NCBI RefSeq assembly: GCF_003334355.1
Contig: NZ_QOWP01000005.1
From: Escherichia coli
GTDB lineage: Bacteria; Pseudomonadota; Gammaproteobacteria; Enterobacterales; Enterobacteriaceae
DNA length: 64,000 bases
Direction: 5' to 3' (one strand)
Shown: one piece after another, positions 3,277-23,676 of the stretch
How positions within the stretch are numbered: position 1 is the first letter of the stretch
Layout: each line of letters starts with the position of its first letter
Notes under the pieces: model-generated
What the model saw: the letters and a program-made list of their open reading frames with translations, nothing else
Database searches by the model: none
Told to the model about the DNA's origin: nothing
Translations under genes and position numbers: made by a program

Positions 3277-4557
3277 ATGATGCCTACGCTTGCTCCACCA
3301 TCTGTCCTTTCGGCTCCCCAGCGCCGCTGCCAGATCTTGCTGACGCTCTTTCAGCCGGGGTTGACCGCCACCATGGCAACCTTCAGCGAGCTTAATGGTG
3401 TGGATGATGATATTGCCAGTCTTGATATCAGCGAAACAGGACGGGAGATCCTGCGCTATCATCAACTCACACTGACGACTGGTTATGACGGTAGCTACCG
3501 GGTTGAAGGTACAGTGCTTAACCAACGTTTGTGTTTATTTCACTGGCTACGACGTGGTTTCCGTCTGTGTCCGTCATTTATTACCAGCCAATTCACCCCC
3601 GCCCTGAAGAGTGAATTGAAGCGGCGCGGAATTGCGCGTAACTTTTACGACGATACCAATCTACAAGCGTTAGTGAATCTCTGCTCCCGACGGCTGCAAA
3701 AACGCTTTGAATCGCGCGATATTCATTTCCTGTGTCTGTATCTGCAATATTGTTTGCTGCAGCACCACGCTGGAATGACGCCTCAGTTTAATCCGCTCCA
3801 ACGTCGCTGGGCGGAATCCTGCCTTGAATTTCAGGTAGCGCAGGAAATTGGACGCCACTGGCAGCGTCGGGCGCTCCAGCCTGTACCGCCTGATGAGCCA
3901 CTGTTTATGGCACTACTTTTTTCCATGTTGCGGGTTCCCGATCCACTGCGGGATGCGCATCAGCGAGACAGACAATTGCGTCAGTCTATCAAACGTCTGG
4001 TAAACCATTTTCGTGAGCTGGGAAATGTTCGTTTTTATGATGAACAGGGGTTATGTGATCAGCTTTATACCCACCTCGCCCAGGCGTTAAATCGCAGTTT
4101 GTTTGCCATCGGTATTGATAATACCCTGCCGGAAGAGTTCGCCAGACTGTACCCACGCCTGGTGCGCACCACCCGCGCGGCGCTGGCCGGATTTGAAAGT
4201 GAATACGGCGTCCATCTTTCTGATGAGGAAAGTGGTCTGGTCGCGGTGATTTTCGGTGCCTGGCTAATGCAGGAAAACGATCTGCATGAAAAACAGATTA
4301 TTCTACTGACCGGGAATGATAGCGAGCGAGAAGCGCAGATTGAGCAGCAGTTACGCGAACTAACGTTACTGCCGCTCAACATTAAGCATATGTCGGTAAA
4401 GGCATTTTTGCAGACAGGCGCTCCGCGTGGCGCGGCACTGATTATTGCGCCTTATACCATGCCATTACCGCTCTTTTCACCACCGCTGATCTATACGGAC
4501 CTGACGCTGACAACACATCAACAGGAGCAGATCCGCAAAATGCTCGAATCAGCATGA
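3277..4557 (+). CDS. csiE: Stationary-phase inducible protein CsiE
   Basis: ORF 3256-4557; start placed at MMPTLAPPSV for the 426-aa product; 3' end overlaps the convergent hcaT by 9 bp. Confidence 0.8.
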   Translation: MMPTLAPPSVLSAPQRRCQILLTLFQPGLTATMATFSELNGVDDDIASLDISETGREILRYHQLTLTTGYDGSYRVEGTVLNQRLCLFHWLRRGFRLCPSFITSQFTPALKSELKRRGIARNFYDDTNLQALVNLCSRRLQKRFESRDIHFLCLYLQYCLLQHHAGMTPQFNPLQRRWAESCLEFQVAQEIGRHWQRRALQPVPPDEPLFMALLFSMLRVPDPLRDAHQRDRQLRQSIKRLVNHFRELGNVRFYDEQGLCDQLYTHLAQALNRSLFAIGIDNTLPEEFARLYPRLVRTTRAALAGFESEYGVHLSDEESGLVAVIFGAWLMQENDLHEKQIILLTGNDSEREAQIEQQLRELTLLPLNIKHMSVKAFLQTGAPRGAALIIAPYTMPLPLFSPPLIYTDLTLTTHQQEQIRKMLESA

Positions 4558-5688
4558 GGGAACAACTTTCGGGCGCAAAAACATTGCCGGCAGCGCCACC
4601 AGCGCCATTACCCAGAACACGCCGTGGCCCAGATATTGATACAGGAAACCGGCGAAAACGGTCATGATAGCGATACTGCCGCCCATCGCGACGGCAGAGT
4701 AAACCGCCTGTAAACGGATGACTTCGCTACCCTGGCGAGCAGCAATATAACGCATGGCGGCCAGGTGGCAGACCGTGAAGGTGCCGCAATGCAGAATTTG
4801 CACCACTATCAACCACGGCAACGCCGTAGTTGCTCCCATAATGCCCCAGCGCACTACGCCGCAAATCGCCGAGATCAACAGCATATCGCGTGCACTACAA
4901 CGGCGGAAAAGTTTATTACTCAGCGCAAAGATAATGACTTCCGCCACCACGCCCAGCGACCACAAATACCCCACCGCCGAGGCCGAGTAGCCAGCTGCCT
5001 GCCAGTAAATGGCGCTAAAACCGTAATAGGCCGCATGTGCCCCCTGCAATAAACAAACGCAGGCCAGAAAGCGCCAGTTCTGGCGAACCAGCGCCAACCA
5101 CGCTGACCAACCGGTGCTCTCCTGCTGGCGGCTTGCCCCTTGTGGCTGAATCGTCGGACGGATGAGAAAGCCGAGCAGCATGGATGCCACGCCCAACGTC
5201 AACAGCGCGAGGATCACCCGATAATCAAACATAGTGACCAGTTTGCCCGTCAGCGCCGAGCCAATGACAAACGCCACCGAGCCCCACAGTCGCACTTTGC
5301 CGTAATCAAGCGGGAACTGCTTTTGCCACGTATTCGCCAGTGCATCGGTCAACGGTACCAGCGGTGAGAAAAAGAGGTTAAAGCCAATCATCACCAGCAT
5401 CAGCCACGCTACGTGCGCCCCCGCCCAGAAGGCGACAGCAAAGAGAAGTGTCAGCAGTGCCAGCACGCGCAAGGCGAAAATCAGGCGGGAAGGATCGCTG
5501 ACGCGGGGCGCGATGAGCAAACTCCCGAGAAAACGGGCAACCAGACCTGCCCCCAATAACAGGCCGATGGTTTCTGGCGTTAAACCAATCCCTTTAAGCC
5601 AGACGCTCCAGAAAGGTAGAAAAATGCCGTAACTAAAAAAGTATGTGAAATAGCCGAGCGCCAACCAGCGCGTGGATTGCAAAACCAT
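4549..5688 (-). CDS. hcaT: MFS transporter HcaT (putative 3-phenylpropionate transporter)
   Basis: 379-aa hydrophobic multi-pass ORF next to the hca operon. Confidence 0.85.
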   Translation of the reverse strand: MVLQSTRWLALGYFTYFFSYGIFLPFWSVWLKGIGLTPETIGLLLGAGLVARFLGSLLIAPRVSDPSRLIFALRVLALLTLLFAVAFWAGAHVAWLMLVMIGFNLFFSPLVPLTDALANTWQKQFPLDYGKVRLWGSVAFVIGSALTGKLVTMFDYRVILALLTLGVASMLLGFLIRPTIQPQGASRQQESTGWSAWLALVRQNWRFLACVCLLQGAHAAYYGFSAIYWQAAGYSASAVGYLWSLGVVAEVIIFALSNKLFRRCSARDMLLISAICGVVRWGIMGATTALPWLIVVQILHCGTFTVCHLAAMRYIAARQGSEVIRLQAVYSAVAMGGSIAIMTVFAGFLYQYLGHGVFWVMALVALPAMFLRPKVVPSC

Positions 5689-9879: not shown

Positions 9880-11091
<1,212 letters not shown>

Positions 11092-11187: not shown

Positions 11188-11610
11188 ATGAACACACTAC
11201 GTTATTTTGATTTTGGAGCTGCCCGCCCCGTTTTGTTATTAATTGCCCGTATCGCCGTGGTCTTAATTTTCATTATTTTTGGTTTTCCCAAAATGATGGG
11301 CTTTGACGGTACGGTCCAATATATGGCCTCGTTGGGCGCGCCAATGCCGATGCTGGCAGCGATTATTGCGGTAGTTATGGAAGTGCCCGCCGCGATATTA
11401 ATCGTGCTTGGCTTTTTCACCCGTCCGCTGGCGGTGCTGTTTATTTTCTACACGCTGGGTACGGCGGTGATTGGTCACCATTACTGGGATATGACCGGCG
11501 ATGCGGTTGGGCCAAATATGATTAATTTCTGGAAGAATGTCAGTATCGCTGGCGCGTTCTTGCTATTGGCAATTACCGGGCCGGGGGCAATTTCTCTCGA
11601 TCGGCGTTAG
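11188..11610 (+). CDS. yphA: DoxX-family inner membrane protein YphA (ORF track begins at an upstream ATG, 11116)
   Basis: Hydrophobic ORF; start placed at MNTLRYFDF for a 140-aa product. Confidence 0.75.
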
Positions 11611-11616
11611 GAAAGA

Positions 11617-11650
11617 TGCCGGATGCGGCGTGAACGCCTTATCCGGCATT
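11617..11650. repeat. REP palindromic unit between yphA and yphB
   Basis: gatgccggatgcggcgtgaacgccttatccggcatt, same family as the REP units at 242-422. Confidence 0.8.
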
Positions 11651-11657
11651 TAATAAA

Positions 11658-12530
11658 TTACAGCCACTCTACCCGCAACGACATCTCTGAAGTTGTTGAT
11701 TCCCCTGGTGCTAGCGCAATGAGATCACCCCCTTCCGGGCGATGATGATCATCCGGCGCATGGCTCATCGGTTCCAGACAGAAGAAATCAAACGCATATC
11801 CTTTATCAAACGCAGGGTCGGAAACAAAGATGAAATAACACGGTGCAGGTGGCGTCGTTTCCATGATGATGGCATAACCTTCCTGCGGCTGCTCGATGCG
11901 GGCCTGACCATTCCATCCGGCAAAACCATTGTTCACCCACTGGCGCGGCAACGGCGCGGGCTGGTTAAAATCCAGTTCCTGCGGTAGCTGCTCGCAAAAC
12001 TCACCCGCCAGCCACTGCTCCCGCTCCAGCCAGTAACCGCTCGCCTGTGCCTGAATCCGCGTTTGCGGCGACAACGGAAAATAAGGATGCCAGCCGGTAC
12101 CAAATGGCAGCGTCTCTGCCCCTTGATTGGTGACAGAGAGCGTCACCGTCAGCGTATCCGCCGTTAAATGAAACGCCTGACTTACCCGATAGTGATAGAC
12201 ACCGCTGCGATGTTCATACACCAGACACAAACTATCATCGCTGTGCGAGACACATTGCCACTCGCCCAGCCAGCCATCGCCGTGTAGATAGTGCGCATCC
12301 CACTCAACATTCGGTTGCAGTTGATACTCACGCCCCTGCCAGACAAAACGATTGCCGCTCACCCGGTTTGCAAATGGCACCAGCGGAAAACATGAGGCAT
12401 CGGTTGCCACACCGCTTTTTTTACCAGGACGTAAGAGCGGCGTCGTATCGCGCCAGAAGCCTTCGATTACGCCGCCCTGGTCAGAAACGTCCAGCTTTAG
12501 CGACCCGTGGGATAAGGTATAGATGGTCAT
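11658..12530 (-). CDS. yphB: Aldose 1-epimerase family protein YphB
   Basis: 290-aa ORF MTIYTLSHGSLKLDVSDQGGVIEGFWRD... Confidence 0.85.
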   Translation of the reverse strand: MTIYTLSHGSLKLDVSDQGGVIEGFWRDTTPLLRPGKKSGVATDASCFPLVPFANRVSGNRFVWQGREYQLQPNVEWDAHYLHGDGWLGEWQCVSHSDDSLCLVYEHRSGVYHYRVSQAFHLTADTLTVTLSVTNQGAETLPFGTGWHPYFPLSPQTRIQAQASGYWLEREQWLAGEFCEQLPQELDFNQPAPLPRQWVNNGFAGWNGQARIEQPQEGYAIIMETTPPAPCYFIFVSDPAFDKGYAFDFFCLEPMSHAPDDHHRPEGGDLIALAPGESTTSEMSLRVEWL

Positions 12531-12541
12531 CCGCTAACTCC

Positions 12542-13603
12542 TTAATCCGGGAAGTTAATCACAACTTTCCCGCATTTGCCGCTCGCCATCAGCGCATAGG
12601 CATCACCTGCCTGTTCCAGCGAGAAGCGATGGGTAATGGCGTTACGCGGCCACAGCTTCCAGTCCGTCAGATCATGGGCGCATTTTTCCATATGGAACAG
12701 ACTGGTCACCCAGGAGCCGATAATCCGCCGTTGATGGTGCATCAGATCGGCGCTGACCTCGAATTCCACTTCTCCGGTTTCACCAATGTAAACCACCCGT
12801 CCCCAGTCAGCGGTGGATTGCAGTGCCAGCAAGCGACCTGCGGCATTACCGGAACAATCGAGCGCAACATCCGCGCCACCGTGGGTGAGTTCGGCGATAA
12901 TCTGCGGCAGACCTTCGGTGGTTGCTAAATAGCCGTGATCCATCACCCCTAACTGTTTTGCCATCGCCAGACGTTCCGGCAGCATATCAACGCCGATGAT
13001 CCGTTTTGCACCGCGACCTTTCGCCAGCATCATCGCCATCATGCCGACCGGCCCCAGACCGACCACCAGCACGTTATCGCTGCCGGAAACTTCGCCGCGC
13101 AAAATCCCTTCATAGGCCGTGCCAACGCCGCAACTGATAAACGCACCATCTTCGTAGCTCAGCGCATCCGGCAGGAGGATCAGATCTTTTTCTTCCGCCA
13201 GCAGATATTCGGCATGACCGCCGTCACGCTGCCAGCCGTAAGCCGCTTTTCCTTTGCCAGTACAAGAGATAGGAAAGCCGCGGCGGCAGTTCGGGCAAAA
13301 ACCACAGCCAGAAATGTGATACACCAGCACGCGGTCGCCCTCTTTAAAATGGCGGCAGCCTTGCCCCATCGCCACAATCTGCCCGCACGGTTCATGACCG
13401 TTGATAAATCCTTGGTATAACGGTTTGTCGGGTGCCGCTGCCGTAGCGCGGTGCTGGTGGTAGATATAGTGGACATCGCTTCCGCAAATTCCGGAAGATT
13501 TCATTTTGATCAGTACCTGGTTAATCCCTGGTGTCGGCACCGCAACTTCCCGTAGATCGACGGTCGAATTTCCTGGTAAATAAGCTGCCAGCATCGTTTT
13601 CAT
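12542..13603 (-). CDS. yphC: Zinc-dependent alcohol/sugar dehydrogenase YphC
   Basis: ORF 12542-13636; MDR-family motifs GHEPCG and GLGPVG; start placed at MKTMLAAYLPG for a 353-aa product. Confidence 0.85.
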   Translation of the reverse strand: MKTMLAAYLPGNSTVDLREVAVPTPGINQVLIKMKSSGICGSDVHYIYHQHRATAAAPDKPLYQGFINGHEPCGQIVAMGQGCRHFKEGDRVLVYHISGCGFCPNCRRGFPISCTGKGKAAYGWQRDGGHAEYLLAEEKDLILLPDALSYEDGAFISCGVGTAYEGILRGEVSGSDNVLVVGLGPVGMMAMMLAKGRGAKRIIGVDMLPERLAMAKQLGVMDHGYLATTEGLPQIIAELTHGGADVALDCSGNAAGRLLALQSTADWGRVVYIGETGEVEFEVSADLMHHQRRIIGSWVTSLFHMEKCAHDLTDWKLWPRNAITHRFSLEQAGDAYALMASGKCGKVVINFPD

Positions 13604-13668
13604 AAATCCCTCATTAACAATACGATTAATTTTCATCCCTGCCGCACCCGCGCCAGGGGCGTTAAGGT

Positions 13669-14667
13669 TTAGCGTTTCGCTTTACTGCTTCGCTGGGTCA
13701 GCAAGATATTCGCCAGCACCGCCACCACGATGATGACGCCGCGTACCACCTGCTGGAAAAAGGAGTTAATACCGAGCAGCACCAGACCGTTACCGATTAG
13801 CGTAATCACCAGCACACCAAGCAATGTACCGAACAGGGAACCGCGACCGCCGGAAAGTGCCGTACCGCCGACCACGACCGCGGCGATGACGTCAAACTCC
13901 AGACCGTTTGCGGCACCTGCGTTACCAGAACCGAGGCGCGCCGCCAACAAAATGCCGGTCACCGCCGCTAATAATCCCGAAAGGGTAAAGATAAGAATGC
14001 GCACCCGACGAACGTTGATGCCGCACAACTGCGCCGCCGTAGCATTACCGCCAACGGCAAAAACCGAGCGCCCGAAGGCGGTTTTGCGGCTGATGAACAC
14101 AAACAGCGCAAACAACACAATCATGATCAGCGCGGATACCGGCACACCGAGAAATTGTCCGCCCAGCCAGTCCAGCACCTCGTTTTCGTCAATCGGCACT
14201 GGCAGGGCGTTCGTCATAAACAGCCCCATTCAGCGCAGGGCGCTCCACAGCCCCAGTGTGGCAACGAAACTTGGTACGTTAAACACGCCGCGCAGCACCC
14301 CGGCGAGCGTTCCCATCAGCGCGCCTAACAGCAACACCAGCAGACAAGCAATCGCCAACGGAACTTCAAATTGCAGCAAAAATGCCAGGCACACCGAGAC
14401 AAAAGCCACCATCGGCCCAACGCTGACATCAATCTCACCGGAGATAATAATCAGCGTCATCGCCCAGGCGGCAATCCCAATGGTGGCGGCATCGCGCAGC
14501 ACGTTCATCTGGTTATTCAATGAGATAAAGCCAGGCGCGTTCAGGGAGAAGACCAGATAAAGAATGGCAATCACCACCAGCAAACCGATCTCATTAATAT
14601 GGCGACTGACAAATTGTTTGAGCGAGACGCTCTTGCCCTGCGGCAATGGTAATGACGAAGCAGACAT
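13669..14667 (-). pseudogene. yphD: ABC transporter permease YphD, interrupted by an in-frame TGA at 14230-14232 followed directly by ATG
   Basis: Two abutting same-frame ORFs (14230-14667, 145 aa; 13669-14229, 186 aa); minus strand reads ...CTG CGC TGA ATG GGG CTG...; 145+1+186 = 332 codons, the length I recall for intact YphD. Confidence 0.7.
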
Positions 14668-14691
14668 CTTCAGGTTCCTCGGTAAAATTCA

Positions 14692-16203
14692 TCAGTGCAC
14701 AGACAGAATGGCGGACATCAGCTCATCCACATTGACCGGCGAGTGAAACTCCTGCGAGAACGTGCCGTGCTGTAATAACAGGATGCGGTCACACACCAGC
14801 GGCAACTCCTCCACTTCACTGGAGATAAACACCACGCTTTTTCCTTCGGCAGCCAGCTCACGGACAATACGGTAAATCTGCTGTTTGGCTTCGATATCGA
14901 CGCCGCGCGTTGGCTCGTCGAGCAACAAAATCTGGCTGGCGGCATAGACCCAACGACCGATCACTACTTTTTGCTGATTGCCGCCAGAAAGCGTGCCGAT
15001 GGGCGTTTCGCTACTGGCGGCCTTGACCGTCATCCGCTGCATCACTTCTTCGGTCAGGCGGCGGATGGTGGACCATTGCAGCACTCCGTTGGCGCTGATT
15101 TTTTGCCGATTGGTCAGCACTGTATTTTCGTCAACGCCCAACCAGGGAATGATCCCCGCTTCTTTGCGGTTTTCTGGCGTATAGCCAATGCCGCGTTTCA
15201 GCATGTCGCCGTAATCGGGGCGCGTGATTTTCTCGCCGTTGATAACAATTTCGCCCTGTTCATACTCCTCCAGCCCAACAATCGCCTTCAGCAATTCACT
15301 GCGCCCTGCCCCCAGCAGACCAGCAATGCCGAGCACTTCGCCACGACGTAGCGTAAAACTGATATCCTCCAGCTTGGGCTTATGGCGTAACGCACGGACT
15401 TCCAGTACGGCCTGATCCACAATTTCCTGAGGGGCAACCGGCGCAATATCAACGTGATCGCGCCCGAGCATCAGCGACACAATATGATGCGTGGAGGTGT
15501 TTTCGAGCATCACATCGCCCGCCACCTGACCATCGCGCATAACGGTGGCACAGGAGGCAATGCGGCGAATTTCTTCCATCCGGTGGCTGACATAAATTAC
15601 CGCCACGCCCAGTGCCGACATCTTTTTCACCGCGCTGATCACCAGTTCAACTTCCGCACTGGCAAGCGAACTGGTAGGTTCATCAAGAATGACCACGCGC
15701 GGCTCGCCCTTCATCACCCGCGCAATTTCCACCAGCTGCTTTTGCGCCGGGCTTAGTGTTGAAACAAGTTGTTCAGGACTAACGTCAACGCCCAACGCCT
15801 GTAAGCAACGTTGGGCATCCTGCGCCATTTGCAGGTAATCAATCATGCCGTTGCGGCGGGGCCACTGACCGAGGCAGAAGTTTTCCGCCACCGTCAGCCC
15901 TTCCACCAGACTTAACTCCTGATAAACCGCGCGTACCCCCAGTTCAGCGGCACGGCGAGTCAGCGTAGCTTCGTCGCCTTCCAGTCGCGTCTCGCCAATC
16001 CAGATATCACCGCTATCCGGACGTTCGCTACCGGTAAGCATTCGAATGAGGGTCGATTTGCCCGCGCCGTTTTTGCCTAACAGCGCACGAACTTCGCCTT
16101 TATTGAGCGTGAAGTTAACGTTATCCAACGCAACGACGCCGGGATAACGCTTATTTCCTGCCACCACTTTTGCTACCGGGACTGCCTCTGTTGCCGTGAA
16201 CAT
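14692..16203 (-). CDS. yphE: Sugar ABC transporter ATP-binding protein YphE (tandem ATPase domains)
   Basis: 503-aa ORF with two Walker A motifs (GKNGAGKST and a second cassette) and an LSGGNQQK signature. Confidence 0.88.
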   Translation of the reverse strand: MFTATEAVPVAKVVAGNKRYPGVVALDNVNFTLNKGEVRALLGKNGAGKSTLIRMLTGSERPDSGDIWIGETRLEGDEATLTRRAAELGVRAVYQELSLVEGLTVAENFCLGQWPRRNGMIDYLQMAQDAQRCLQALGVDVSPEQLVSTLSPAQKQLVEIARVMKGEPRVVILDEPTSSLASAEVELVISAVKKMSALGVAVIYVSHRMEEIRRIASCATVMRDGQVAGDVMLENTSTHHIVSLMLGRDHVDIAPVAPQEIVDQAVLEVRALRHKPKLEDISFTLRRGEVLGIAGLLGAGRSELLKAIVGLEEYEQGEIVINGEKITRPDYGDMLKRGIGYTPENRKEAGIIPWLGVDENTVLTNRQKISANGVLQWSTIRRLTEEVMQRMTVKAASSETPIGTLSGGNQQKVVIGRWVYAASQILLLDEPTRGVDIEAKQQIYRIVRELAAEGKSVVFISSEVEELPLVCDRILLLQHGTFSQEFHSPVNVDELMSAILSVH

Positions 16204-16225
16204 AGGGACCTCTGCGAATCAGCGA

Positions 16226-17209
16226 TTAGGGCAGACCATCAACGTGCGTTGCCAGCCACTGTTTACCGTCTTCCGTTTTGGTATAGAGATCGATAGGCAC
16301 CTGAATCACTTTTTCACCGTCGGCTTGTTTATTGATAACCTTCAATGTTTGCGCGAAAACAGCATTGCCCATTTTCTTACCGGAAATATCCACTACCGCT
16401 TTCAGCACCTGATTGTTTTCCAGCTCCTGAGCAATTTCGGTTGTCATATCCGAACCGAAAACAGCAATTTTTCCGGCCTGATTTTGATTACGTACCGCTT
16501 TTACCGCGCCGAGTGTCGCACCGCCCGATTCCCCCATAATGGCGTTGAGATCCGGCGTGGAGATAATCAGTTTTTCACCAACGGAAATCGCTTTATCTAA
16601 AACAGTCCCTTCCTGATTAGCGACAATTTGCGCGCCGGGAACGCGGGCTTTTAATACTTCTTCAAACCCTTTACGTCGTTGCACACAAACTTCAAAGGCT
16701 TCGCAATTGATGACGGCAATTTTCGGCTGGTCAATTTTATTGGCAATAAAATAATCGGCGGCAGCGTTACCCAGTTTTTTACCAAATTCCAGTGGATCGC
16801 CGACCAGATACGCCGAGACATATTTATCGACACCCTTTTGATTAATACAGGTGTTGTAGCAAATCACCGGAATACCCGCTTCACTGGCGCGACGAACGGT
16901 ACGGCTACTGCCATTTTCAGACACTGCCGATAAAATAATGGCATCGACATTACGCGCCACGAGGGTATCAACAAAGGTACTTTCTTTCGAAATATCACCC
17001 TGGGCGTTAGTTTCAATTAACTGTACCTGTACTGAAGAATCTTTTGCCGCATCCTGAACGCCCTGACGCACTCCAGCGTAATATCCCTGGGTATCAAGGT
17101 ATATTGCACCAATGGTCATTTCTTTATCCGCAGCCCTGGCAAATAGTGCGCTACCTAATAGCGTAGCCATTAATAATAGATTACGGGTTGTTCTCATTTT
17201 TTTAGGCAT
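16226..17209 (-). CDS. yphF: Periplasmic sugar-binding protein YphF of ABC transporter
   Basis: 327-aa ORF with N-terminal signal peptide MPKKMRTTRNLLLMATLLGSALFARA. Confidence 0.85.
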   Translation of the reverse strand: MPKKMRTTRNLLLMATLLGSALFARAADKEMTIGAIYLDTQGYYAGVRQGVQDAAKDSSVQVQLIETNAQGDISKESTFVDTLVARNVDAIILSAVSENGSSRTVRRASEAGIPVICYNTCINQKGVDKYVSAYLVGDPLEFGKKLGNAAADYFIANKIDQPKIAVINCEAFEVCVQRRKGFEEVLKARVPGAQIVANQEGTVLDKAISVGEKLIISTPDLNAIMGESGGATLGAVKAVRNQNQAGKIAVFGSDMTTEIAQELENNQVLKAVVDISGKKMGNAVFAQTLKVINKQADGEKVIQVPIDLYTKTEDGKQWLATHVDGLP

Positions 17210-17305
17210 AGTACCTCCTGTAGGGTTTTTATTAACAACGGCTTATTCTAATTATTTTGTGATGAGCGGCAGCGCATGCCGCTCAAATATTACAGTTAAT
17301 AGGGT

Positions 17306-20300
17306 TTAGTGAACGTAGTTAAAAATAAAAGGCATCACGGTGGTGAATAATGCCGCTTTCGGCCAGGCCGGATTAATCGCCGTCAATTCAGCGCGAGCAG
17401 ATTCATATTGCGCAACCTCCCCGAGTCCCGCGGACGCCAGCATCGCCACCATCAGGCATTTTTCTTTATGCTGCTGTTGTAAATCGCCATACAGCGACAA
17501 CAGGTCAGGTTGTGAAACAGCAAAGAAATCCGCCTCAATACTGGTTTTCGCCATCTCTTGCGCCCACTGTTTCATTTCACTAAACAGTTGCTGTGCGGTT
17601 TGCTGTTCACCCAGCAGTCGCAGCGCCATTCCTTGCCAGAAGAGATAATCAACCGGCTGATCGTTGTAATAACTGTGGATGTTAATGGTGCGATCGCCGG
17701 TCGCCGCCAGACGTAAACAACGCATCGCTTCAGTTTCATCGCCCTGCGCGTTGGCGCATATCGCCTGCCAGAACCAGATGTCGTTATCAGTTTGCCCCGG
17801 TAAACGGCCTTCGCTTAAATTCTCCGGATAATGCAGCGCGGCATGAAGCAGTTCGCTGGCCTGCTGCGGCTCTCTGGCATCAAGATGCTGCCAGGCGCGT
17901 AATAACTGGTTGAGGATAAACTGACTGGTGACCTTCCCTTCCCCGCCTTCCCACGGGTGGAATTTACGCGTGGCGAGAATGTCCGCCGCTTTGTCTGCCT
18001 GACCCGTGAGATGCCACAAATTGAGCAGTTCTGCGGTCATGTCGTCGCGTTTCAGCGCAATTTCCTGATTATTTTCCAGACGCGCCAGTCGTTTCTCCGG
18101 TGTGGCTCCACTTAACTTATCAAGCAAATCCCGTTCGAAAAGCAGACGTGCATCCTGCGGCGCAAGCTGATAAGCATTATCAAGATAACGCGCGGCCAGC
18201 TCATAATCGTGTTGCTTATTCCACGCATGGATCGCTAACCCGCGCCAGCCGTCGGCAAACTCCGGCGACATCTCTACGCAACGTTGCCATAAGGCAATGG
18301 CTTTGTTGTAGCTACGTTTGTTATAGTAGAAGCAGGCCAGTAAATGGCGAGCAAACCAGCACTCTTCAATACTCTCCAGCGCCGCCACTTCTTCCAGCGT
18401 ATTCGGGAAACGGACAAACTGCGGGAAGACATCAATGGCTTTTGCGACCAGTTCGCCACGTTCGGCTTTCGGCAGCAAGCTGGCTTGCAGGTAAAGCGGC
18501 AGCGTGCGCTGGCAGTCCAGTGCGTTCAGCATCTCTGCCGCCAGGGTGGGCATTCCCCAGTTAATCAGTTGCCCGGCGGTCATCAGAGCGTTAACGTCGC
18601 GTCCCTGACACAGACCGCGCCACTGCGCGAGGGCTGATTCGCTACGACCATCGAACCAGTTCAGCCACCACAGAGTGGCGTTCAGCGGATAATCGCGCAG
18701 CAGTTTCTCGCGCTGCAAACGCGCGTTGTCCTGACGACCACTTAACACCAGCAGCAGGTTATGCAGGCAAAGCACTTCCTGATTGGTTGGGCAGGCGCGA
18801 AGACTTTGTTGGCAAAAATCCAGACCCGCATCGAAGTTACCATTACGCGCAGCCAGTCGTGCCAGGCCATAATAGCCACCGGCTTTGCTGTTGCCGCTCC
18901 AGACCGCCCGCCAGAAATCCTCTTCGGCTTGTTGATATTGTCCCTGACGTTCGTAAGCACTGGCGCGAATCAAACTCGCCTGTCCGCACTGCGGATTTTT
19001 GTTCAGCGCATGTGCGCGTTTCAGAGCCTGAGTGGCATACGCCACCGCTTGCGGGAAATCGGCACGGTTATATTCCAGCATCGCCAGCGCCAGGTTACAG
19101 CGGTAATCCAGCGGATCCAGCGCCACGCCGCGTAGGTAGTAATCGAACGGTGAACGGCTGGCGTGATGATATTGCTCCAGATGCTGACCGATAAACCAGG
19201 CTTCATCTGTACTGGTAATGTCTTGTGCTGCCAGTGGCGCTTTGGCGACGTCCGGCAACGGCAACTCTTGCGGCTGATGTTCCTGATAACTCAGTACAAT
19301 ATTGCCGTCGGCATCGGAGAGCTCAATGGTCAGCCTTTCAGGATTGATACCGTGCAACACGCCCTGGATGGCGGTCGCAGGCATCAGTGCCACGGCATCA
19401 TCAAGTAACGCGTTGCATTTGCCGATTTCGCGGATCGCCAGGCGGTATCCGTTCAACGGAGAGATGGCATACAGCCCCCACTCAATCCCCCGCTCACTAC
19501 GCTGGAGTTTTATCACCGCATCGCGGGAGGCATTTTGCACCATGCCCAAAGAATGATAAGGCAGGAAATACTGCTCAAAACGCTTCTCTTCGTAAGCATC
19601 AAGCCAGGTAAAATCAGGCTGGTTATCGGCAAAAATACCGGTCATCAGTTCGATATACGGGCCGTTATTGTCGGTCAGACTCTTATCCCACGCCTGGCCA
19701 AATTCACTGTGTCCCCAGCTCCACTGCTTTTTACCTGGCGCAATATGGTGGTTGGCAACGTGTAGCAAACCACCATCTTCATCGTGACACCACGCGCCAA
19801 CAAAATCGTACTGTGATTTTTCAGCCATATATGAGGTTGGAACGGGCACATTTTTATAGCGAGAAATGTCCACTCCAGCGGAGTAGTCCACTTTGTAGTA
19901 AGTGCCGGTGGCGATGGGGAAAGCGGAGACGGCCCGTTTGCCGTGATCAAACACCGCAGTCACATCCGGCGGGAAAACGCTCTGATGCCCTTCCCCCCCT
20001 TTCACTGCCGGGTTGGCCCACCACAAGAAATGACGCGGCGTGGCGTTGCCGTTATAGACGCGGCTGGCGATTTCCAGCGCCGCCCGGTCAGGGCGCAGGG
20101 TGAAACCTGTCATCACCTGTAAACCATGCATCGGCTCCGTTTCGCCGACCCACACCGTCTGTGCGCCGTCTTCATGGGCTTCGAGGGTGAAATCAACGGG
20201 CATAAAGGTGGTCGGGCGATGGTGTTGCGGCCAGTTAAACTCAATCCCGCCAGAGATCCACGGTCCCAGCAGCCCCACCAGCGCAGGTTTAATGACTTCA

Positions 20301-20587
20301 TTGTGATAGACAAAATCGCGCTGTTTCACTTTATCCCATGCGCGATGCACCCGACCGCCCAGTTCCGGCAGGATCATCACTTTGATGTAGTCGTTTTCCA
20401 GCCACACCGCCTGCCAGGATTTCAGGGTTTTCTGTTCACTCAGCGTATCGGTCACGCCGTAGGGATAAACCGCGCCGGACGATCCCTGATAAACGCGATT
20501 TTCCAGGAACATGGGATGTATATCCTGCGGCCCGGTTTCATAGGTCGGGATCTCAACGCGCTCTTGCCACACTTTTACTGGAGTCAT
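17306..20587 (-). CDS. yphG: Large uncharacterised protein YphG (TPR-like repeats; ORF track extends 31 codons upstream to 20680)
   Basis: ORF 17306-20680; start placed at MTPVKVWQERV for a 1093-aa product. Confidence 0.8.
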   Translation of the reverse strand: MTPVKVWQERVEIPTYETGPQDIHPMFLENRVYQGSSGAVYPYGVTDTLSEQKTLKSWQAVWLENDYIKVMILPELGGRVHRAWDKVKQRDFVYHNEVIKPALVGLLGPWISGGIEFNWPQHHRPTTFMPVDFTLEAHEDGAQTVWVGETEPMHGLQVMTGFTLRPDRAALEIASRVYNGNATPRHFLWWANPAVKGGEGHQSVFPPDVTAVFDHGKRAVSAFPIATGTYYKVDYSAGVDISRYKNVPVPTSYMAEKSQYDFVGAWCHDEDGGLLHVANHHIAPGKKQWSWGHSEFGQAWDKSLTDNNGPYIELMTGIFADNQPDFTWLDAYEEKRFEQYFLPYHSLGMVQNASRDAVIKLQRSERGIEWGLYAISPLNGYRLAIREIGKCNALLDDAVALMPATAIQGVLHGINPERLTIELSDADGNIVLSYQEHQPQELPLPDVAKAPLAAQDITSTDEAWFIGQHLEQYHHASRSPFDYYLRGVALDPLDYRCNLALAMLEYNRADFPQAVAYATQALKRAHALNKNPQCGQASLIRASAYERQGQYQQAEEDFWRAVWSGNSKAGGYYGLARLAARNGNFDAGLDFCQQSLRACPTNQEVLCLHNLLLVLSGRQDNARLQREKLLRDYPLNATLWWLNWFDGRSESALAQWRGLCQGRDVNALMTAGQLINWGMPTLAAEMLNALDCQRTLPLYLQASLLPKAERGELVAKAIDVFPQFVRFPNTLEEVAALESIEECWFARHLLACFYYNKRSYNKAIALWQRCVEMSPEFADGWRGLAIHAWNKQHDYELAARYLDNAYQLAPQDARLLFERDLLDKLSGATPEKRLARLENNQEIALKRDDMTAELLNLWHLTGQADKAADILATRKFHPWEGGEGKVTSQFILNQLLRAWQHLDAREPQQASELLHAALHYPENLSEGRLPGQTDNDIWFWQAICANAQGDETEAMRCLRLAATGDRTINIHSYYNDQPVDYLFWQGMALRLLGEQQTAQQLFSEMKQWAQEMAKTSIEADFFAVSQPDLLSLYGDLQQQHKEKCLMVAMLASAGLGEVAQYESARAELTAINPAWPKAALFTTVMPFIFNYVH

Positions 20588-20704
20588 GGTGCCCTCAATA
20601 TTAACAAGACATACTGAATTAAAAGATTTGTGGCAGTGTATTGAACAATCTGGCAATGTTTTCGCGGAATAATCACGCAATTAACTAAACAAGGTTTAGT
20701 GAAG

Positions 20705-21898
20705 ATGAGAGCCTGCATTAACAACCAACAGATTCGCCACCATAACAAATGCGTGATTCTGGAACTGCTGTACCGGCAAAAGCGCGCCAATAAATCAACG
20801 CTGGCCCGGCTGGCGCAAATTTCGATTCCGGCAGTCAGTAATATTTTGCAGGAACTGGAAAGCGAAAAACGGGTGGTGAATATCGACGATGAAAGCCAGA
20901 CGCGCGGGCATAGTAGCGGTACATGGCTGATTGCGCCGGAAGGTGACTGGACGCTGTGTCTGAACGTGACGCCCACCAGTATTGAGTGTCAGGTTGCTAA
21001 TGCTTGTTTAAGTCCGAAAGGTGAATTTGAGTATTTACAGATTGATGCACCGACGCCGCAGGCGCTGCTGTCCGAAATCGAAAAATGCTGGCATCGCCAC
21101 CGTAAATTGTGGCCGGACCGCACCATCAATCTGGCGCTGGCAATCCACGGTCAGGTTGATCCGGTGACCGGCGTATCGCAAACCATGCCGCAAGCGCCGT
21201 GGACAACGCCGGTTGAGGTGAAGTATCTGCTGGAAGAGAAGCTGGGCATTCGGGTGATGGTCGATAATGACTGCGTGATGCTGGCGCTGGCGGAGAAATG
21301 GCAAAATAATTCGCAGGAACGGGATTTCTGCGTGATCAACGTTGATTACGGCATTGGCTCGTCGTTCGTGATTAACGAGCAAATTTATCGCGGCAGTTTG
21401 TATGGTAGCGGACAGATTGGTCACACCATCGTTAATCCGGATGGCGTCGTCTGCGACTGTGGACGTTACGGCTGCCTGGAAACCGTCGCCTCGTTAAGTG
21501 CATTAAAAAAACAGGCGCGGGTATGGCTAAAATCACAACCGGTTAATACTCAGCTTGATCCTGAAAAACTGACAACCGCGCAGTTAATCGCTGCCTGGCA
21601 GAGTGGAGAACCGTGGATCACCAGCTGGGTTGATCGCTCTGCCAATGCCATTGGTTTGAGTCTGTATAACTTCCTCAACATCCTCAATATTAATCAGATT
21701 TGGTTGTACGGTCGCAGTTGTGCCTTTGGTGAGAACTGGCTTAATACTATTATTCGCCAGACAGGATTTAACCCGTTCGACCGCGACGAAGGACCGAGCG
21801 TGAAAGCGACGCAAATTGGCTTTGGGCAATTAAGCCGCGCACAACAGGTGCTGGGAATTGGCTATTTGTATGTTGAGGCGCAGTTACGACAGATTTGA
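20705..21898 (+). CDS. yphH: ROK-family (NagC/XylR-like) transcriptional regulator YphH
   Basis: ORF 20699-21898; N-terminal helix-turn-helix and ROK sugar-kinase-like body with CDCGRYGCLE zinc motif. Confidence 0.85.
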   Translation: MRACINNQQIRHHNKCVILELLYRQKRANKSTLARLAQISIPAVSNILQELESEKRVVNIDDESQTRGHSSGTWLIAPEGDWTLCLNVTPTSIECQVANACLSPKGEFEYLQIDAPTPQALLSEIEKCWHRHRKLWPDRTINLALAIHGQVDPVTGVSQTMPQAPWTTPVEVKYLLEEKLGIRVMVDNDCVMLALAEKWQNNSQERDFCVINVDYGIGSSFVINEQIYRGSLYGSGQIGHTIVNPDGVVCDCGRYGCLETVASLSALKKQARVWLKSQPVNTQLDPEKLTTAQLIAAWQSGEPWITSWVDRSANAIGLSLYNFLNILNINQIWLYGRSCAFGENWLNTIIRQTGFNPFDRDEGPSVKATQIGFGQLSRAQQVLGIGYLYVEAQLRQI

Positions 21899-22095: not shown

Positions 22096-23349
22096 TTATG
22101 CGTAAACCGGGTAACGTGCGCAGATGTCGAGAACTTTACCTTTGATGCGCTCGATAACGGCTTCATCATTGATGCTGTCCAGCACGTCACACATCCAGCC
22201 AGCCAGTTCTTTCGCTTCGGCTTCTTTGAAGCCGCGACGCGTAATTGCCGGAGTACCCACGCGAATACCGGAGGTCACAAACGGGCTCTTCGGATCGTTC
22301 GGTACGCTGTTTTTGTTGACGGTGATGTTAGCACGGCCCAGAGCGGCGTCTGCTTCTTTACCGGTCAGGTTTTTATCAACCAGATCAACCAGGAACAGGT
22401 GGTTATCAGTGCCGCCGGAAACGACTTTGTAGCCGCGCTCGAGGAACACTTCTACCATCGCTTTAGCGTTTTTCGCGACCTGCTGCTGGTAAGTTTTGAA
22501 CTCAGGCTCCATCGCTTCTTTCAGAGCAACCGCTTTACCGGCGATTACGTGCATCAACGGACCGCCCTGACCACCAGGGAAAACGGCAGAGTTCAGTTTT
22601 TTGTACAGCTCTTCGCTACCACCTTTCGCCAGGATCAGGCCGCCGCGCGGACCCGCCAGGGTTTTGTGAGTGGTGGTAGTAACAACGTGAGCATGAGGAA
22701 CCGGGTTCGGGTAGACGCCAGCAGCAACCAGGCCCGCAACGTGCGCCATATCAACGAACAGGTAAGCACCGATGCTGTCAGCGATTTCACGCATTTTCGC
22801 CCAGTCAACCACGCCGGAATATGCAGAGAAGCCACCGATAATCATTTTCGGCTTGTGTTCTTTGGCTTGTTTTTCCAGATCGGCGTAGTCGATATGACCG
22901 GTAGCATCGATACCGTAAGGAACGATGTTGTACAGTTTACCGGAGAAGTTAACCGGAGAACCGTGAGTCAGGTGACCGCCATGCGCCAGGTTCATACCCA
23001 GAACGGTATCACCTGGTTCCAGCAGCGCGGTGTAGACCGCAAAGTTAGCCTGGGAGCCGGAGTGCGGCTGGACGTTAGCGTAGTCAGCGCCGAACAGTTC
23101 TTTCGCACGATCGATCGCCAGTTGTTCAACGATATCAACATACTCGCAACCGCCGTAGTAGCGTTTGCCCGGATAACCTTCAGCATATTTGTTGGTCAGC
23201 TGAGAACCCTGCGCCTGCATTACGCGCGGGCTGGTGTAGTTTTCGGAGGCGATCAGTTCGATGTGCTCTTCCTGACGTACTTTTTCCTGCTTCATAGCCT
23301 GCCACAGTTCGGCATCATAATCGGCAATGTTCATTTCACGCTTTAACAT
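22096..23349 (-). CDS. glyA: Serine hydroxymethyltransferase
   Basis: ORF 22096-23355; start placed at [17 protein letters not shown] for a 417-aa product; PLP-lysine context [14 protein letters not shown]. Confidence 0.93.
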
Positions 23350-23676
23350 CCGCATCTCCTGACTCAGCTAACAATAAAATTTTTGGCCTTTATAGGCGGT
23401 CCTGTTGGACAACGGCGAACAGTATAACCGAATCATTGTGCGATAACAGGTCTTGACAAAGGAATTTACGCAAACGATTACCTTCAGGCTACGCAAGGCT
23501 TTGGAGAATAAAGAGCTTGCAACCGGAAACGGATTTCTTTTCAGGTTTGTGATGCAAATTTTTCACTTCATCACATTCTTTCTGAAAAACACCAAAGAAC
23601 CATTTACATTGCAGGGCTATTTTTTATAAGATGCATTTGAGATACATCAATTAAGATGCAAAAAAAGGAAGACCAT

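Follow-up and report, generated by a model that had tools for sequence, protein, structure and literature searches.

The yph locus of Escherichia coli: a core carbohydrate cluster with a TPR protein of aldose-1-epimerase fold, YphG, and a premature stop codon in yphD

The yph locus and the proteins it encodes

We analysed the genes yphA to yphH of Escherichia coli in a 64-kb stretch of chromosomal DNA (the window, by which we mean the whole stretch), where they lie between hcaD (9889-11091) and glyA (22096-23355, minus strand). RefSeq annotates this part in the order hcaD, yphA, yphB, yphC, yphD, yphE, yphF, yphG, yphH, glyA (Table 1). A sequence-only reading of the same DNA had described the eight genes, between the hca operon and glyA, as a sugar uptake and catabolism cluster; all eight were located there, and their family assignments, including a ROK gene divergent from yphG, hold on profile, PDB and motif evidence. 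As set out below, the largest of the proteins, YphG, has a mutarotase-fold domain and makes up, with a regulator and a monosaccharide-type importer, the unit conserved across relatives, and the permease gene yphD carries a genuine stop codon in the window.

Each of the 5426 complete E. coli genomes matched the interval 11188-21898, 5371 of them over at least 80% of its length at 95-100% identity. This part of the core genome of the species is ordinary and already annotated, and it is not a new system, as the sequence-only reading had also held. The six genes from yphG to yphB lie on a single strand with intergenic gaps of 11-96 bp, a layout compatible with one operon. All eight Yph proteins scored below the cut-off of every substrate-defined NCBIfam equivalog (Rbs, Ara, Xyl, Als, Mgl, Ytf, Lsr, Tdh, IolM, GalM, NagC, Mlc). 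A full-text literature search found no substrate assignment for yph, in agreement with the earlier statement that none was known, and the matches for yphC, yphF and yphG mostly concerned other genes (a Bacillus GTPase, Helicobacter multilocus sequence typing loci and a Klebsiella PCR marker).

Table 1. Features of the yph locus, with positions in the window
Feature	Position	Strand	Description
yphA	11188-11610	+	DoxX-family membrane protein, 140 aa; RefSeq annotation
Repetitive extragenic palindromic (REP)-like imperfect palindrome	11616-11649		Convergent yphA/yphB gap; arms of 16 nt, 88% complementary, 2 nt spacing
yphB	11658-12530	-	Aldose-1-epimerase-family protein, 290 aa
yphC	12542-13636	-	Zn-dependent medium-chain dehydrogenase
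yphD	13669-14667	-	CUT2-type ATP-binding cassette (ABC) permease, interrupted in the window
Premature TGA	14230-14232	-	yphD codon 146, Gly146 to stop (GGA in relatives)
yphE	14692-16203	-	Fused two-domain ABC ATPase, 503 aa
yphF	16226-17209	-	Periplasmic binding protein with signal peptide
Stem-loop	17263-17285	-	Perfect, 9 bp, TGAGCGGCA-N5-TGCCGCTCA; yphG/yphF gap, directly after O2; no T-run
O2	17294-17310		Candidate YphH operator, copy 2 of the 17-bp palindrome; overlaps the stop codon of yphG; its end lies 85 nt before the start of yphF
yphG	17306-20587	-	1093 aa, cytoplasmic; DUF5107 and TPR
YphG TPR solenoid	17312-19210		Residues 460-1092; helical repeats, ~630 residues
YphG small beta domain			Residues 357-435
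YphG aldose-1-epimerase-fold beta domain	19553-20587		Residues 1-345
O1	20684-20700		17-bp palindrome ACTAAAC-AAG-GTTTAGT; abuts the yphH start
yphH	20705-21898	+	ROK-family regulator, divergent from yphG

YphB is the protein of PDB entry 3NRE, deposited as "Aldose 1-epimerase" (E 5e-210); by sequence and fold it belongs to that family, its activity being predicted. In 14 related loci, a YphB-like gene comes after YphG or after the transporter. The best NCBIfam matches of YphC were Tdh (172 bits) and IolM (169 bits), both far under cut-off, and its nearest PDB entries are an alcohol dehydrogenase and a xylitol dehydrogenase. Its motifs GICGSDVH, GHEPCG, CGFCPNCRRGFPISC and GLGPVG represent the zinc ligands, the structural Cys cluster and the GxGxxG NAD(P) site. 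In a comparison of the window with loci L007, L010 and L011, YphC (90% identity between E. coli and Budvicia) proved far better conserved than the products of its operon neighbours, with 80% for YphF, 73% for YphE, 66% for YphG and 58% each for YphB and YphH.

The proteins YphD, YphE and YphF correspond to a CUT2-type ABC importer. YphD, scored on an intact relative, matched RbsC with 227 bits and AraH with 222 bits; in the window, the TGA at codon 146 leaves no intact RbsC/AraH-type permease of ~330 aa. YphE has one Walker A and one LSGG motif and, at ~500 aa, the size of a CUT2 fused ATPase; the AraG, XylG, AlsA and MglA models scored 414-454 bits and RbsA 384 bits, each over the full length and all sub-cut-off. 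YphF begins with a signal peptide (MPKKMRTTRNLLLMATLLGSALFARA) and has many class-I, Peripla_BP-type relatives in the PDB, as befits the secreted binding protein of such an importer. Its best solved relative is 5HSG (E 3e-24), the ligand of which is not transferable, and it weakly resembles allose and rhizopine binding proteins. A transfer of ligands from Firmicute CUT2 binding proteins was rejected as well, identity being merely 22-26%. A proteomics study detected YphF and found it upregulated, its level rising alongside those of MalE, XylF, MglA and YtfQ; we read this levoglucosan lead as general relief from catabolite repression and not as a clue to the substrate (PMC8753852).

YphG and the unit conserved across relatives

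The sequence-only reading had regarded YphG merely as a TPR-like protein. Pfam DUF5107 (PF17128) matches its residues 39-324 at E 3e-55, which places it in this family, and no signal peptide was found. The AlphaFold model, based on 79 sequences (predicted local distance difference test 95.4, predicted template modelling score 0.93), consists of an epimerase-fold beta domain, a small beta domain and a TPR solenoid. The N-terminal domain has the mutarotase fold and is nearest to stand-alone epimerases, not to any glycoside hydrolase (GH) catalytic domain.

A full-library search returned 5774 relatives of YphG at E<=0.001 and 1159 at E<=1e-30, and most relatives keep the architecture of ~1100 residues down to ~28% identity. 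Foldseek matches in AFDB50 were solely unnamed DUF5107 or TPR proteins, and one literature search found DUF5107/PF17128 solely as an unexplained marker of phagotrophic stramenopiles. The structural-genomics entry 5CD6 (BDI_1685 of Parabacteroides distasonis, "TPR-domain containing protein") has 575-580 residues, about half the length of YphG, and a much shorter TPR part; no described function for it was found in the literature. The YphG/DUF5107 family is thus large, spans phyla and has a confidently predicted, unusual architecture and a consistent genomic association, with no characterised member.

Invariant or near-invariant polar and aromatic residues of YphG cluster in the epimerase-fold domain, where they form the motif W-I-S-G-G-x-E116-F-N-W-P-Q-H122-H123-R124 and include H215, K287, D306, the invariant E313 and N-Q-P-D325; the helical part contributes a conserved R782 and a PWEGGEG motif. 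In E. coli GalM, the catalytic set comprises H104, H175 and E309. A mapping of mutarotase catalytic residues onto YphG was abandoned, as the alignments to GalM and YphB were insignificant and an intermediate of DUF5107 type alone could be aligned. This intermediate is a distant DUF5107/DUF4432-like protein of 332 aa whose gene adjoins that of YphG in Ktedonobacter and several Firmicutes; it aligns with the YphG domain at an hhalign probability of 96%, E313 falling on its conserved Glu. Unlike GalM, YeaD and YphB, the YphG domain is fused to the small beta domain and the solenoid, has Asn192 at the His position and has E116, H122, H123 and R124 as new invariant residues, and its similarity to these proteins is below profile detection. 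Judged from sequence, the catalytic machinery of YphG can be called related to that of mutarotases but remodelled, and no more than that.

We compared the neighbourhoods of the YphG orthologues and of 80 more distant homologues, taking one genome per species and clustering the neighbouring open reading frames (ORFs), which gave 85 loci from five or more phyla. The E. coli layout, with the ROK gene divergent from YphG, followed by YphF, YphE, YphD, YphC and YphB, is found in Escherichia, Klebsiella, one Enterobacter species and Budvicia. Aeromonas, Serratia, Limnobaculum and some Citrobacter and Enterobacter have a ROK gene, YphG, a XylE-like sugar porter of the major facilitator superfamily (MFS) and an epimerase, without ABC genes or YphC. 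In other Citrobacter, the ROK gene, YphG and an epimerase lie to one side, opposite genes for a GPH transporter, a GH36 alpha-galactosidase and a porin. The standard unit in Bacteroidota consists of a divergent AraC regulator and a sugar-porter MFS, then YphG; the order in Lachnospiraceae is GalM, CUT2 ABC system, AraC, YphG; and two-gene MFS-YphG units without any other catabolic gene occur.

Within three genes of YphG, a monosaccharide-type importer was present in 55 of the 85 loci and an AraC or ROK regulator in 61. A mutarotase-like partner of one of three non-orthologous kinds (GalM-like, YphB-like or DUF5107-like) lay within 10 kb in 28 loci, and a YphC-like gene in 9. Because of these counts, we take YphG, importer and regulator to be the invariant payload: the conserved unit is a regulator, a monosaccharide-type importer and YphG, and the ABC importer and YphC are lineage-specific accessories. 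The full yphB-G set does recur in loci of the E. coli type, but the conserved chemistry of "import, oxidation and anomer conversion" proposed in the sequence-only reading is not borne out, with YphC so rare, YphC and the ABC importer accessory and YphG the invariant partner.

Genes for galactosidases recur beside YphG. A GH2 enzyme related to the exo-beta-1,4-galactosidase BT4151 was found in 29 loci, a GH35 beta-galactosidase in 8, GH36 in 8, a GH97-like retaining alpha-galactosidase in 4 and GH95 in 4, together with a GalM-like epimerase in 10; the remaining neighbours include a GH53 galactanase, LacZ-type GH2, GH30 and GH115. In 37 of the 85 loci, a BT4151-like GH2, a GH35, a GH36 or a GH97 gene was at most three genes away from YphG. 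These galactosidase neighbours, and the monosaccharide type of the importers, suggest that YphG may handle a galactose-configured free sugar released from galactosides.

The earlier delimitation of the unit as yphA-yphH does not stand at its left end, because yphA, behind the REP-like palindrome, is convergent to yphB and is missing from the clusters of Aeromonas, Serratia and Citrobacter. It constitutes a separate transcription unit, and its membership in the yph system is uncertain. YphA orthologues lie beside the ROK gene in Klebsiella (87%; L007:8195-8617) and Enterobacter sp. Ag1 (75%; L017:8126-8548), a Pfam DoxX gene lies near the ROK gene in Limnobaculum (L008:6632-7063), and Budvicia has an ORF of similar size (147 aa) at the DoxX position. 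Such DoxX genes near the ROK gene are seen in both ABC- and MFS-type clusters, on the opposite side of the cluster from the position of yphA in E. coli.

Two further neighbours were observed. In Bacteroidota, a family of 740-975-aa proteins (cluster c20; members at L005:412-3339, minus strand, L021:6335-8563, plus strand, and in three further loci) adjoins YphG, and in Citrobacter it lies within the GPH-GH36-porin operon; it had no Pfam, NCBIfam or PDB sequence match. The hcaT gene (window 4549-5688, minus strand) has 82-83% identical orthologues on the same strand directly 3' of yphB in Klebsiella (L007:19115-20248) and Citrobacter (L005:14271-15428), with no hca genes near those loci. In E. 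coli, hcaR-hcaEFCBD-yphA looks like an insertion between yphB and hcaT, a reading that would weaken the adjacency-based naming of HcaT as a 3-phenylpropionate transporter. A role of hcaT as the ancestral yph transporter was considered and rejected, as the clusters of Aeromonas and Serratia lack it and it is much better conserved than the yph module; more likely, it is a stable neighbour of the cluster.

Candidate YphH operators and the yphD stop codon

YphH has the N-terminal winged helix, the ROK domain and the CxCGxxGC zinc motif (CDCGRYGC at residue 250) of ROK proteins, and its residues 9-342 were matched by the NagC (112 bits) and Mlc (109 bits) models, for which the cut-offs are 650 and 530. 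Its orthologues (58-96% identity) flank every Enterobacterales and Aeromonas cluster variant and carry Pfam ROK, the one in Aeromonas also with a weak MarR-type match. YphH has been termed the "third uncharacterized ROK repressor", its clade being small, long-branched and without the conserved GR linker motif (PMC4288165), and it is listed as a transcription factor of unknown function (PMC9308461). In its size (~400 aa), its domains and zinc motif and the divergence of its gene from the presumed target operon, YphH is like NagC, Mlc and Bacillus XylR, and so is the AT-rich palindromic candidate operator in two copies; what sets it apart is its own clade lacking the GR linker (PMC4288165) and a candidate palindrome of 17 bp with 7-bp arms.

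This palindrome was found in the 117-bp gap between yphH and yphG, where the block 20663-20703 just upstream of yphH is conserved from E. coli to Aeromonas and also holds an invariant TCACGCA. A scan of the window for the degenerate form ASTWAAC-N3-GTTWAST, with one mismatch allowed, gave three matches vs 0.06 expected, and three were reached in 0 of 100 shuffles. O1 is present in 15 of 15 Enterobacterales and Aeromonas loci, and an O2 equivalent occurs at the yphG-yphF junction of Klebsiella, E. albertii and Budvicia (three of the four other ABC-type loci). The second box in Citrobacter precedes the GPH-GH36 operon, which would tie the alpha-galactoside module to the same regulator. Each transporter module thus comes with a box of its own, and this is what a YphH regulon would be expected to look like; YphH binding, an effector, promoters and co-transcription of yphG-yphB are inferred.

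The third match (48247-48263, ACCAAACCGTGTTTAGT, one mismatch) lies just upstream of the nadB ORF (48280-49902) and is probably part of nadB's own operator region of AAAC/GTTT type, not of the YphH regulon. The stem-loop between O2 and yphF may serve in the processing or stability of the mRNA or act as a partial attenuator. A CRP site in the TCACGCA block was rejected by inspection, its left half-site being unlike TGTGA, and so was a reading of the palindrome as an RNA hairpin that sequesters the yphH ribosome-binding site, as the differences between species are non-compensatory. The promoter and terminator consensus scan was discarded because it gave no more sites than shuffled sequence.

The permease disruption pointed out in the sequence-only reading is real: yphD contains an in-frame TGA at codon 146, an in-frame ATG follows directly, and the gene is called as ORFs of 145 aa and 186 aa; yphD is intact in the compared relative. 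The stop was absent from 3119 of 3119 complete E. coli genomes reached by a 61-nt probe, with 2307 genomes not reached. Public assemblies contain the exact truncated products. A 9-kb contig (L090) from six sequencing samples is 100% identical to window positions 11618-20667, stop included. In four further assemblies, the same G-to-T substitution sits on another yphD haplotype, which differs at 10-11 additional positions of the gene; yphB is also split in two of the four, and other yphD lesions occur in further assemblies. Because of the identical contig in six samples and the same substitution on a second haplotype, the stop is a genuine shared allele and no artefact, and its presence on two haplotypes implies recurrent mutation or short-tract recombination. 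Among the draft contigs, several from other backgrounds end exactly at codon 146 yet keep the intact G (loci compared at this codon: L090, L096, L098, L102 and L103).

The remaining seven yph genes are intact in the window, and 42 kb downstream are colinear in one piece with ordinary E. coli at 99.9% identity. We therefore conclude that the core locus is conserved and that the stop represents a tip-level loss-of-function allele of it; to call the locus decaying in this lineage was an overstatement, the cluster being full length species-wide. A Shigella-like erosion of the region was rejected, as the flanks are colinear and free of insertion sequence (IS) elements. Read-through or re-initiation is conceivable, since the stop is a TGA with an ATG immediately after it. 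The closest complete genome (L002, NZ_CM136169.1, 6998-7695) has an IS1 at the 5' end of yphF, and among the complete genomes, one has an IS1397 insertion in the cluster and another retains yphH alone (H64, H65). Two missense differences were seen at window positions 12772 and 15879, namely YphC Glu289 (Lys in the two closest complete genomes) and YphE Phe109 (Leu in one of those two); both Glu289 and Phe109 are common to the window and contig L090.

A possible pathway and its alternatives

The reading that we favour, at a probability of roughly 0.4, is a YphH-repressed, sugar-induced operon for the import of a galactose-type monosaccharide, with YphG as the committed step, YphB supplying the anomer and YphC as an add-on. 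Genes yphGFEDCB would form one sugar-inducible operon, which YphH would repress via the palindrome at O1 and O2. The imported substrate would be a monosaccharide-sized, probably galactose-configured sugar, entering through the CUT2 ABC system YphDEF in E. coli and through a XylE-like proton symporter in relatives. YphG would take the committed cytoplasmic step: its divergent aldose-1-epimerase-type domain would perform ring-opening acid/base chemistry at the anomeric centre, leading to anomer or ring-form conversion or to isomerisation, with the TPR solenoid as a cap. YphB would equilibrate anomers for YphG, and YphC, a lineage-specific addition, would oxidise or reduce the product or a co-substrate. 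In the window, uptake would be lost or crippled by the yphD stop, with possible polar effects on yphC and yphB.

Such a system would share with E. coli mglBAC and galM/galETK, which serve the uptake of galactose and methyl-galactosides with a mutarotase, a CUT2 ABC importer (fused double ATPase, RbsC-like permease, class-I binding protein) and an aldose-1-epimerase for a free hexose. It differs from gal in that a ROK protein takes the place of the LacI-type GalR/GalS, genes for a kinase or a transferase are missing, the central gene, for a 1093-aa DUF5107-TPR protein, has no gal counterpart, and the Yph proteins score under the Mgl and GalM equivalog cut-offs. AraC-regulated monosaccharide loci of Bacteroidota and Firmicutes (e.g., of the rhamnose type) combine a divergent AraC gene, an MFS or CUT2 importer and a committed cytoplasmic enzyme, often beside sugar-releasing glycosidases. 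The relatives of yph match this layout, the place of the committed enzyme being held by YphG.

Several points weigh against this pathway. Canonical mutarotase catalysis in YphG is not demonstrated: the profile alignments to GalM (hhalign probability 0.1) and YphB (1) are not significant, and the conserved His of the 332-aa neighbour protein aligns with Asn192. A mutarotase partner beside a mutarotase-like enzyme looks redundant. The neighbourhoods are heterogeneous, also containing GH95, GH115, GH30, sulfatases, a xylulokinase-like kinase and a tagaturonate reductase, and complete systems for galactose, arabinose and galactofuranose are already present in E. coli, so that the real yph substrate may differ. 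On the side of regulation, the consensus scan of the yphH-yphG gap found no promoter, and O2 lies ~60 nt upstream of the sole weak -10-like hexamer before yphF.

More tentatively, YphG may found a new enzyme class in the aldose-1-epimerase superfamily, i.e., a TPR-capped catalyst of ~1100 residues for a new step on a galactoside-derived monosaccharide, found from E. coli to gut Bacteroidota and Lachnospiraceae and always beside a monosaccharide importer.

We consider it unlikely that YphG is instead a new kind of cytoplasmic enzyme, a glycosidase or phosphorylase acting on a small galactoside such as a galactosyl-polyol or a disaccharide, with the mutarotase converting the released anomer and YphC oxidising the polyol aglycone. 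The several conserved carboxylates and aromatics that line the beta domain, the galactosidase-rich neighbourhoods and the polyol-dehydrogenase-like YphC would fit such an enzyme, and a hydrolase followed by a mutarotase parallels the lacZ/galM logic. However, the importers linked to YphG belong to monosaccharide types (CUT2 ABC, XylE-like sugar porters), the galactoside step in Citrobacter is already covered by a separate GPH transporter and GH36 in the same regulon, and the fold of YphG is nearer to stand-alone epimerases than to the catalytic domain of any glycoside hydrolase.

Still less probable is the model of the sequence-only reading, in which YphDEF brings in a sugar or polyol for oxidation by YphC and anomer conversion by YphB, and YphG stays at the periphery. 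YphC and the ABC genes are lacking in most clusters with YphH, YphG and YphB, and the largest and most conserved gene, yphG, would be left without a role. YphC itself is an intact Zn-dehydrogenase, the best matches of which include scyllo-inosose and xylitol dehydrogenases; it is 90-99% conserved from E. coli to Budvicia, and a 48% identical relative lies next to YphG in a Dorea metagenome-assembled genome that also encodes a xylulokinase-like kinase. These features, as well as the weak likeness of YphF to allose and rhizopine binding proteins, are what this model has in its favour.

Slightly further down, we place a non-enzymatic YphG, a sugar-binding sensor or scaffold whose TPR solenoid would dock the transporter, the regulator or other enzymes. 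TPR repeats, which make up ~630 of its residues, are typical protein-interaction modules, and the position of the aligned catalytic His is an Asn. A conserved docking partner is hard to name, though, as the partners of YphG are unrelated across phyla (ROK or AraC regulators, ABC or MFS transporters), and the two-gene MFS-YphG units suggest that YphG supplies the chemistry; moreover, conservation is concentrated in its sugar-pocket domain. Finally, that yph is a cryptic remnant decaying in E. coli without current function is very improbable: the yphD lesions, two of them with a split yphB, the IS1 and IS1397 insertions and the genome with yphH only would agree with it, but the presence of the cluster in all 5426 complete genomes, essentially full length in 5371, the absence of the stop from the probed complete genomes, the 95% identity of YphG in E. 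albertii, the conservation of the family across phyla and the upregulation of YphF (PMC8753852) do not.

The yph locus is among the carbohydrate loci of the E. coli core genome that still await characterisation, and the comparative data shift the question from a polyol oxidised by YphC to the role of the DUF5107-TPR protein. As genetic handles, the locus offers the candidate operator of YphH and a natural null allele of yphD, and if YphG indeed represents a new enzyme class, the yph operon would be a handle for finding its reaction and substrate. The YphG family comprises >1000 clusters at 50% identity and is found in galactoside-degrading loci of major gut phyla. A defined YphG reaction would annotate this whole family and could fill a gap in the processing of galactoside-derived sugars.

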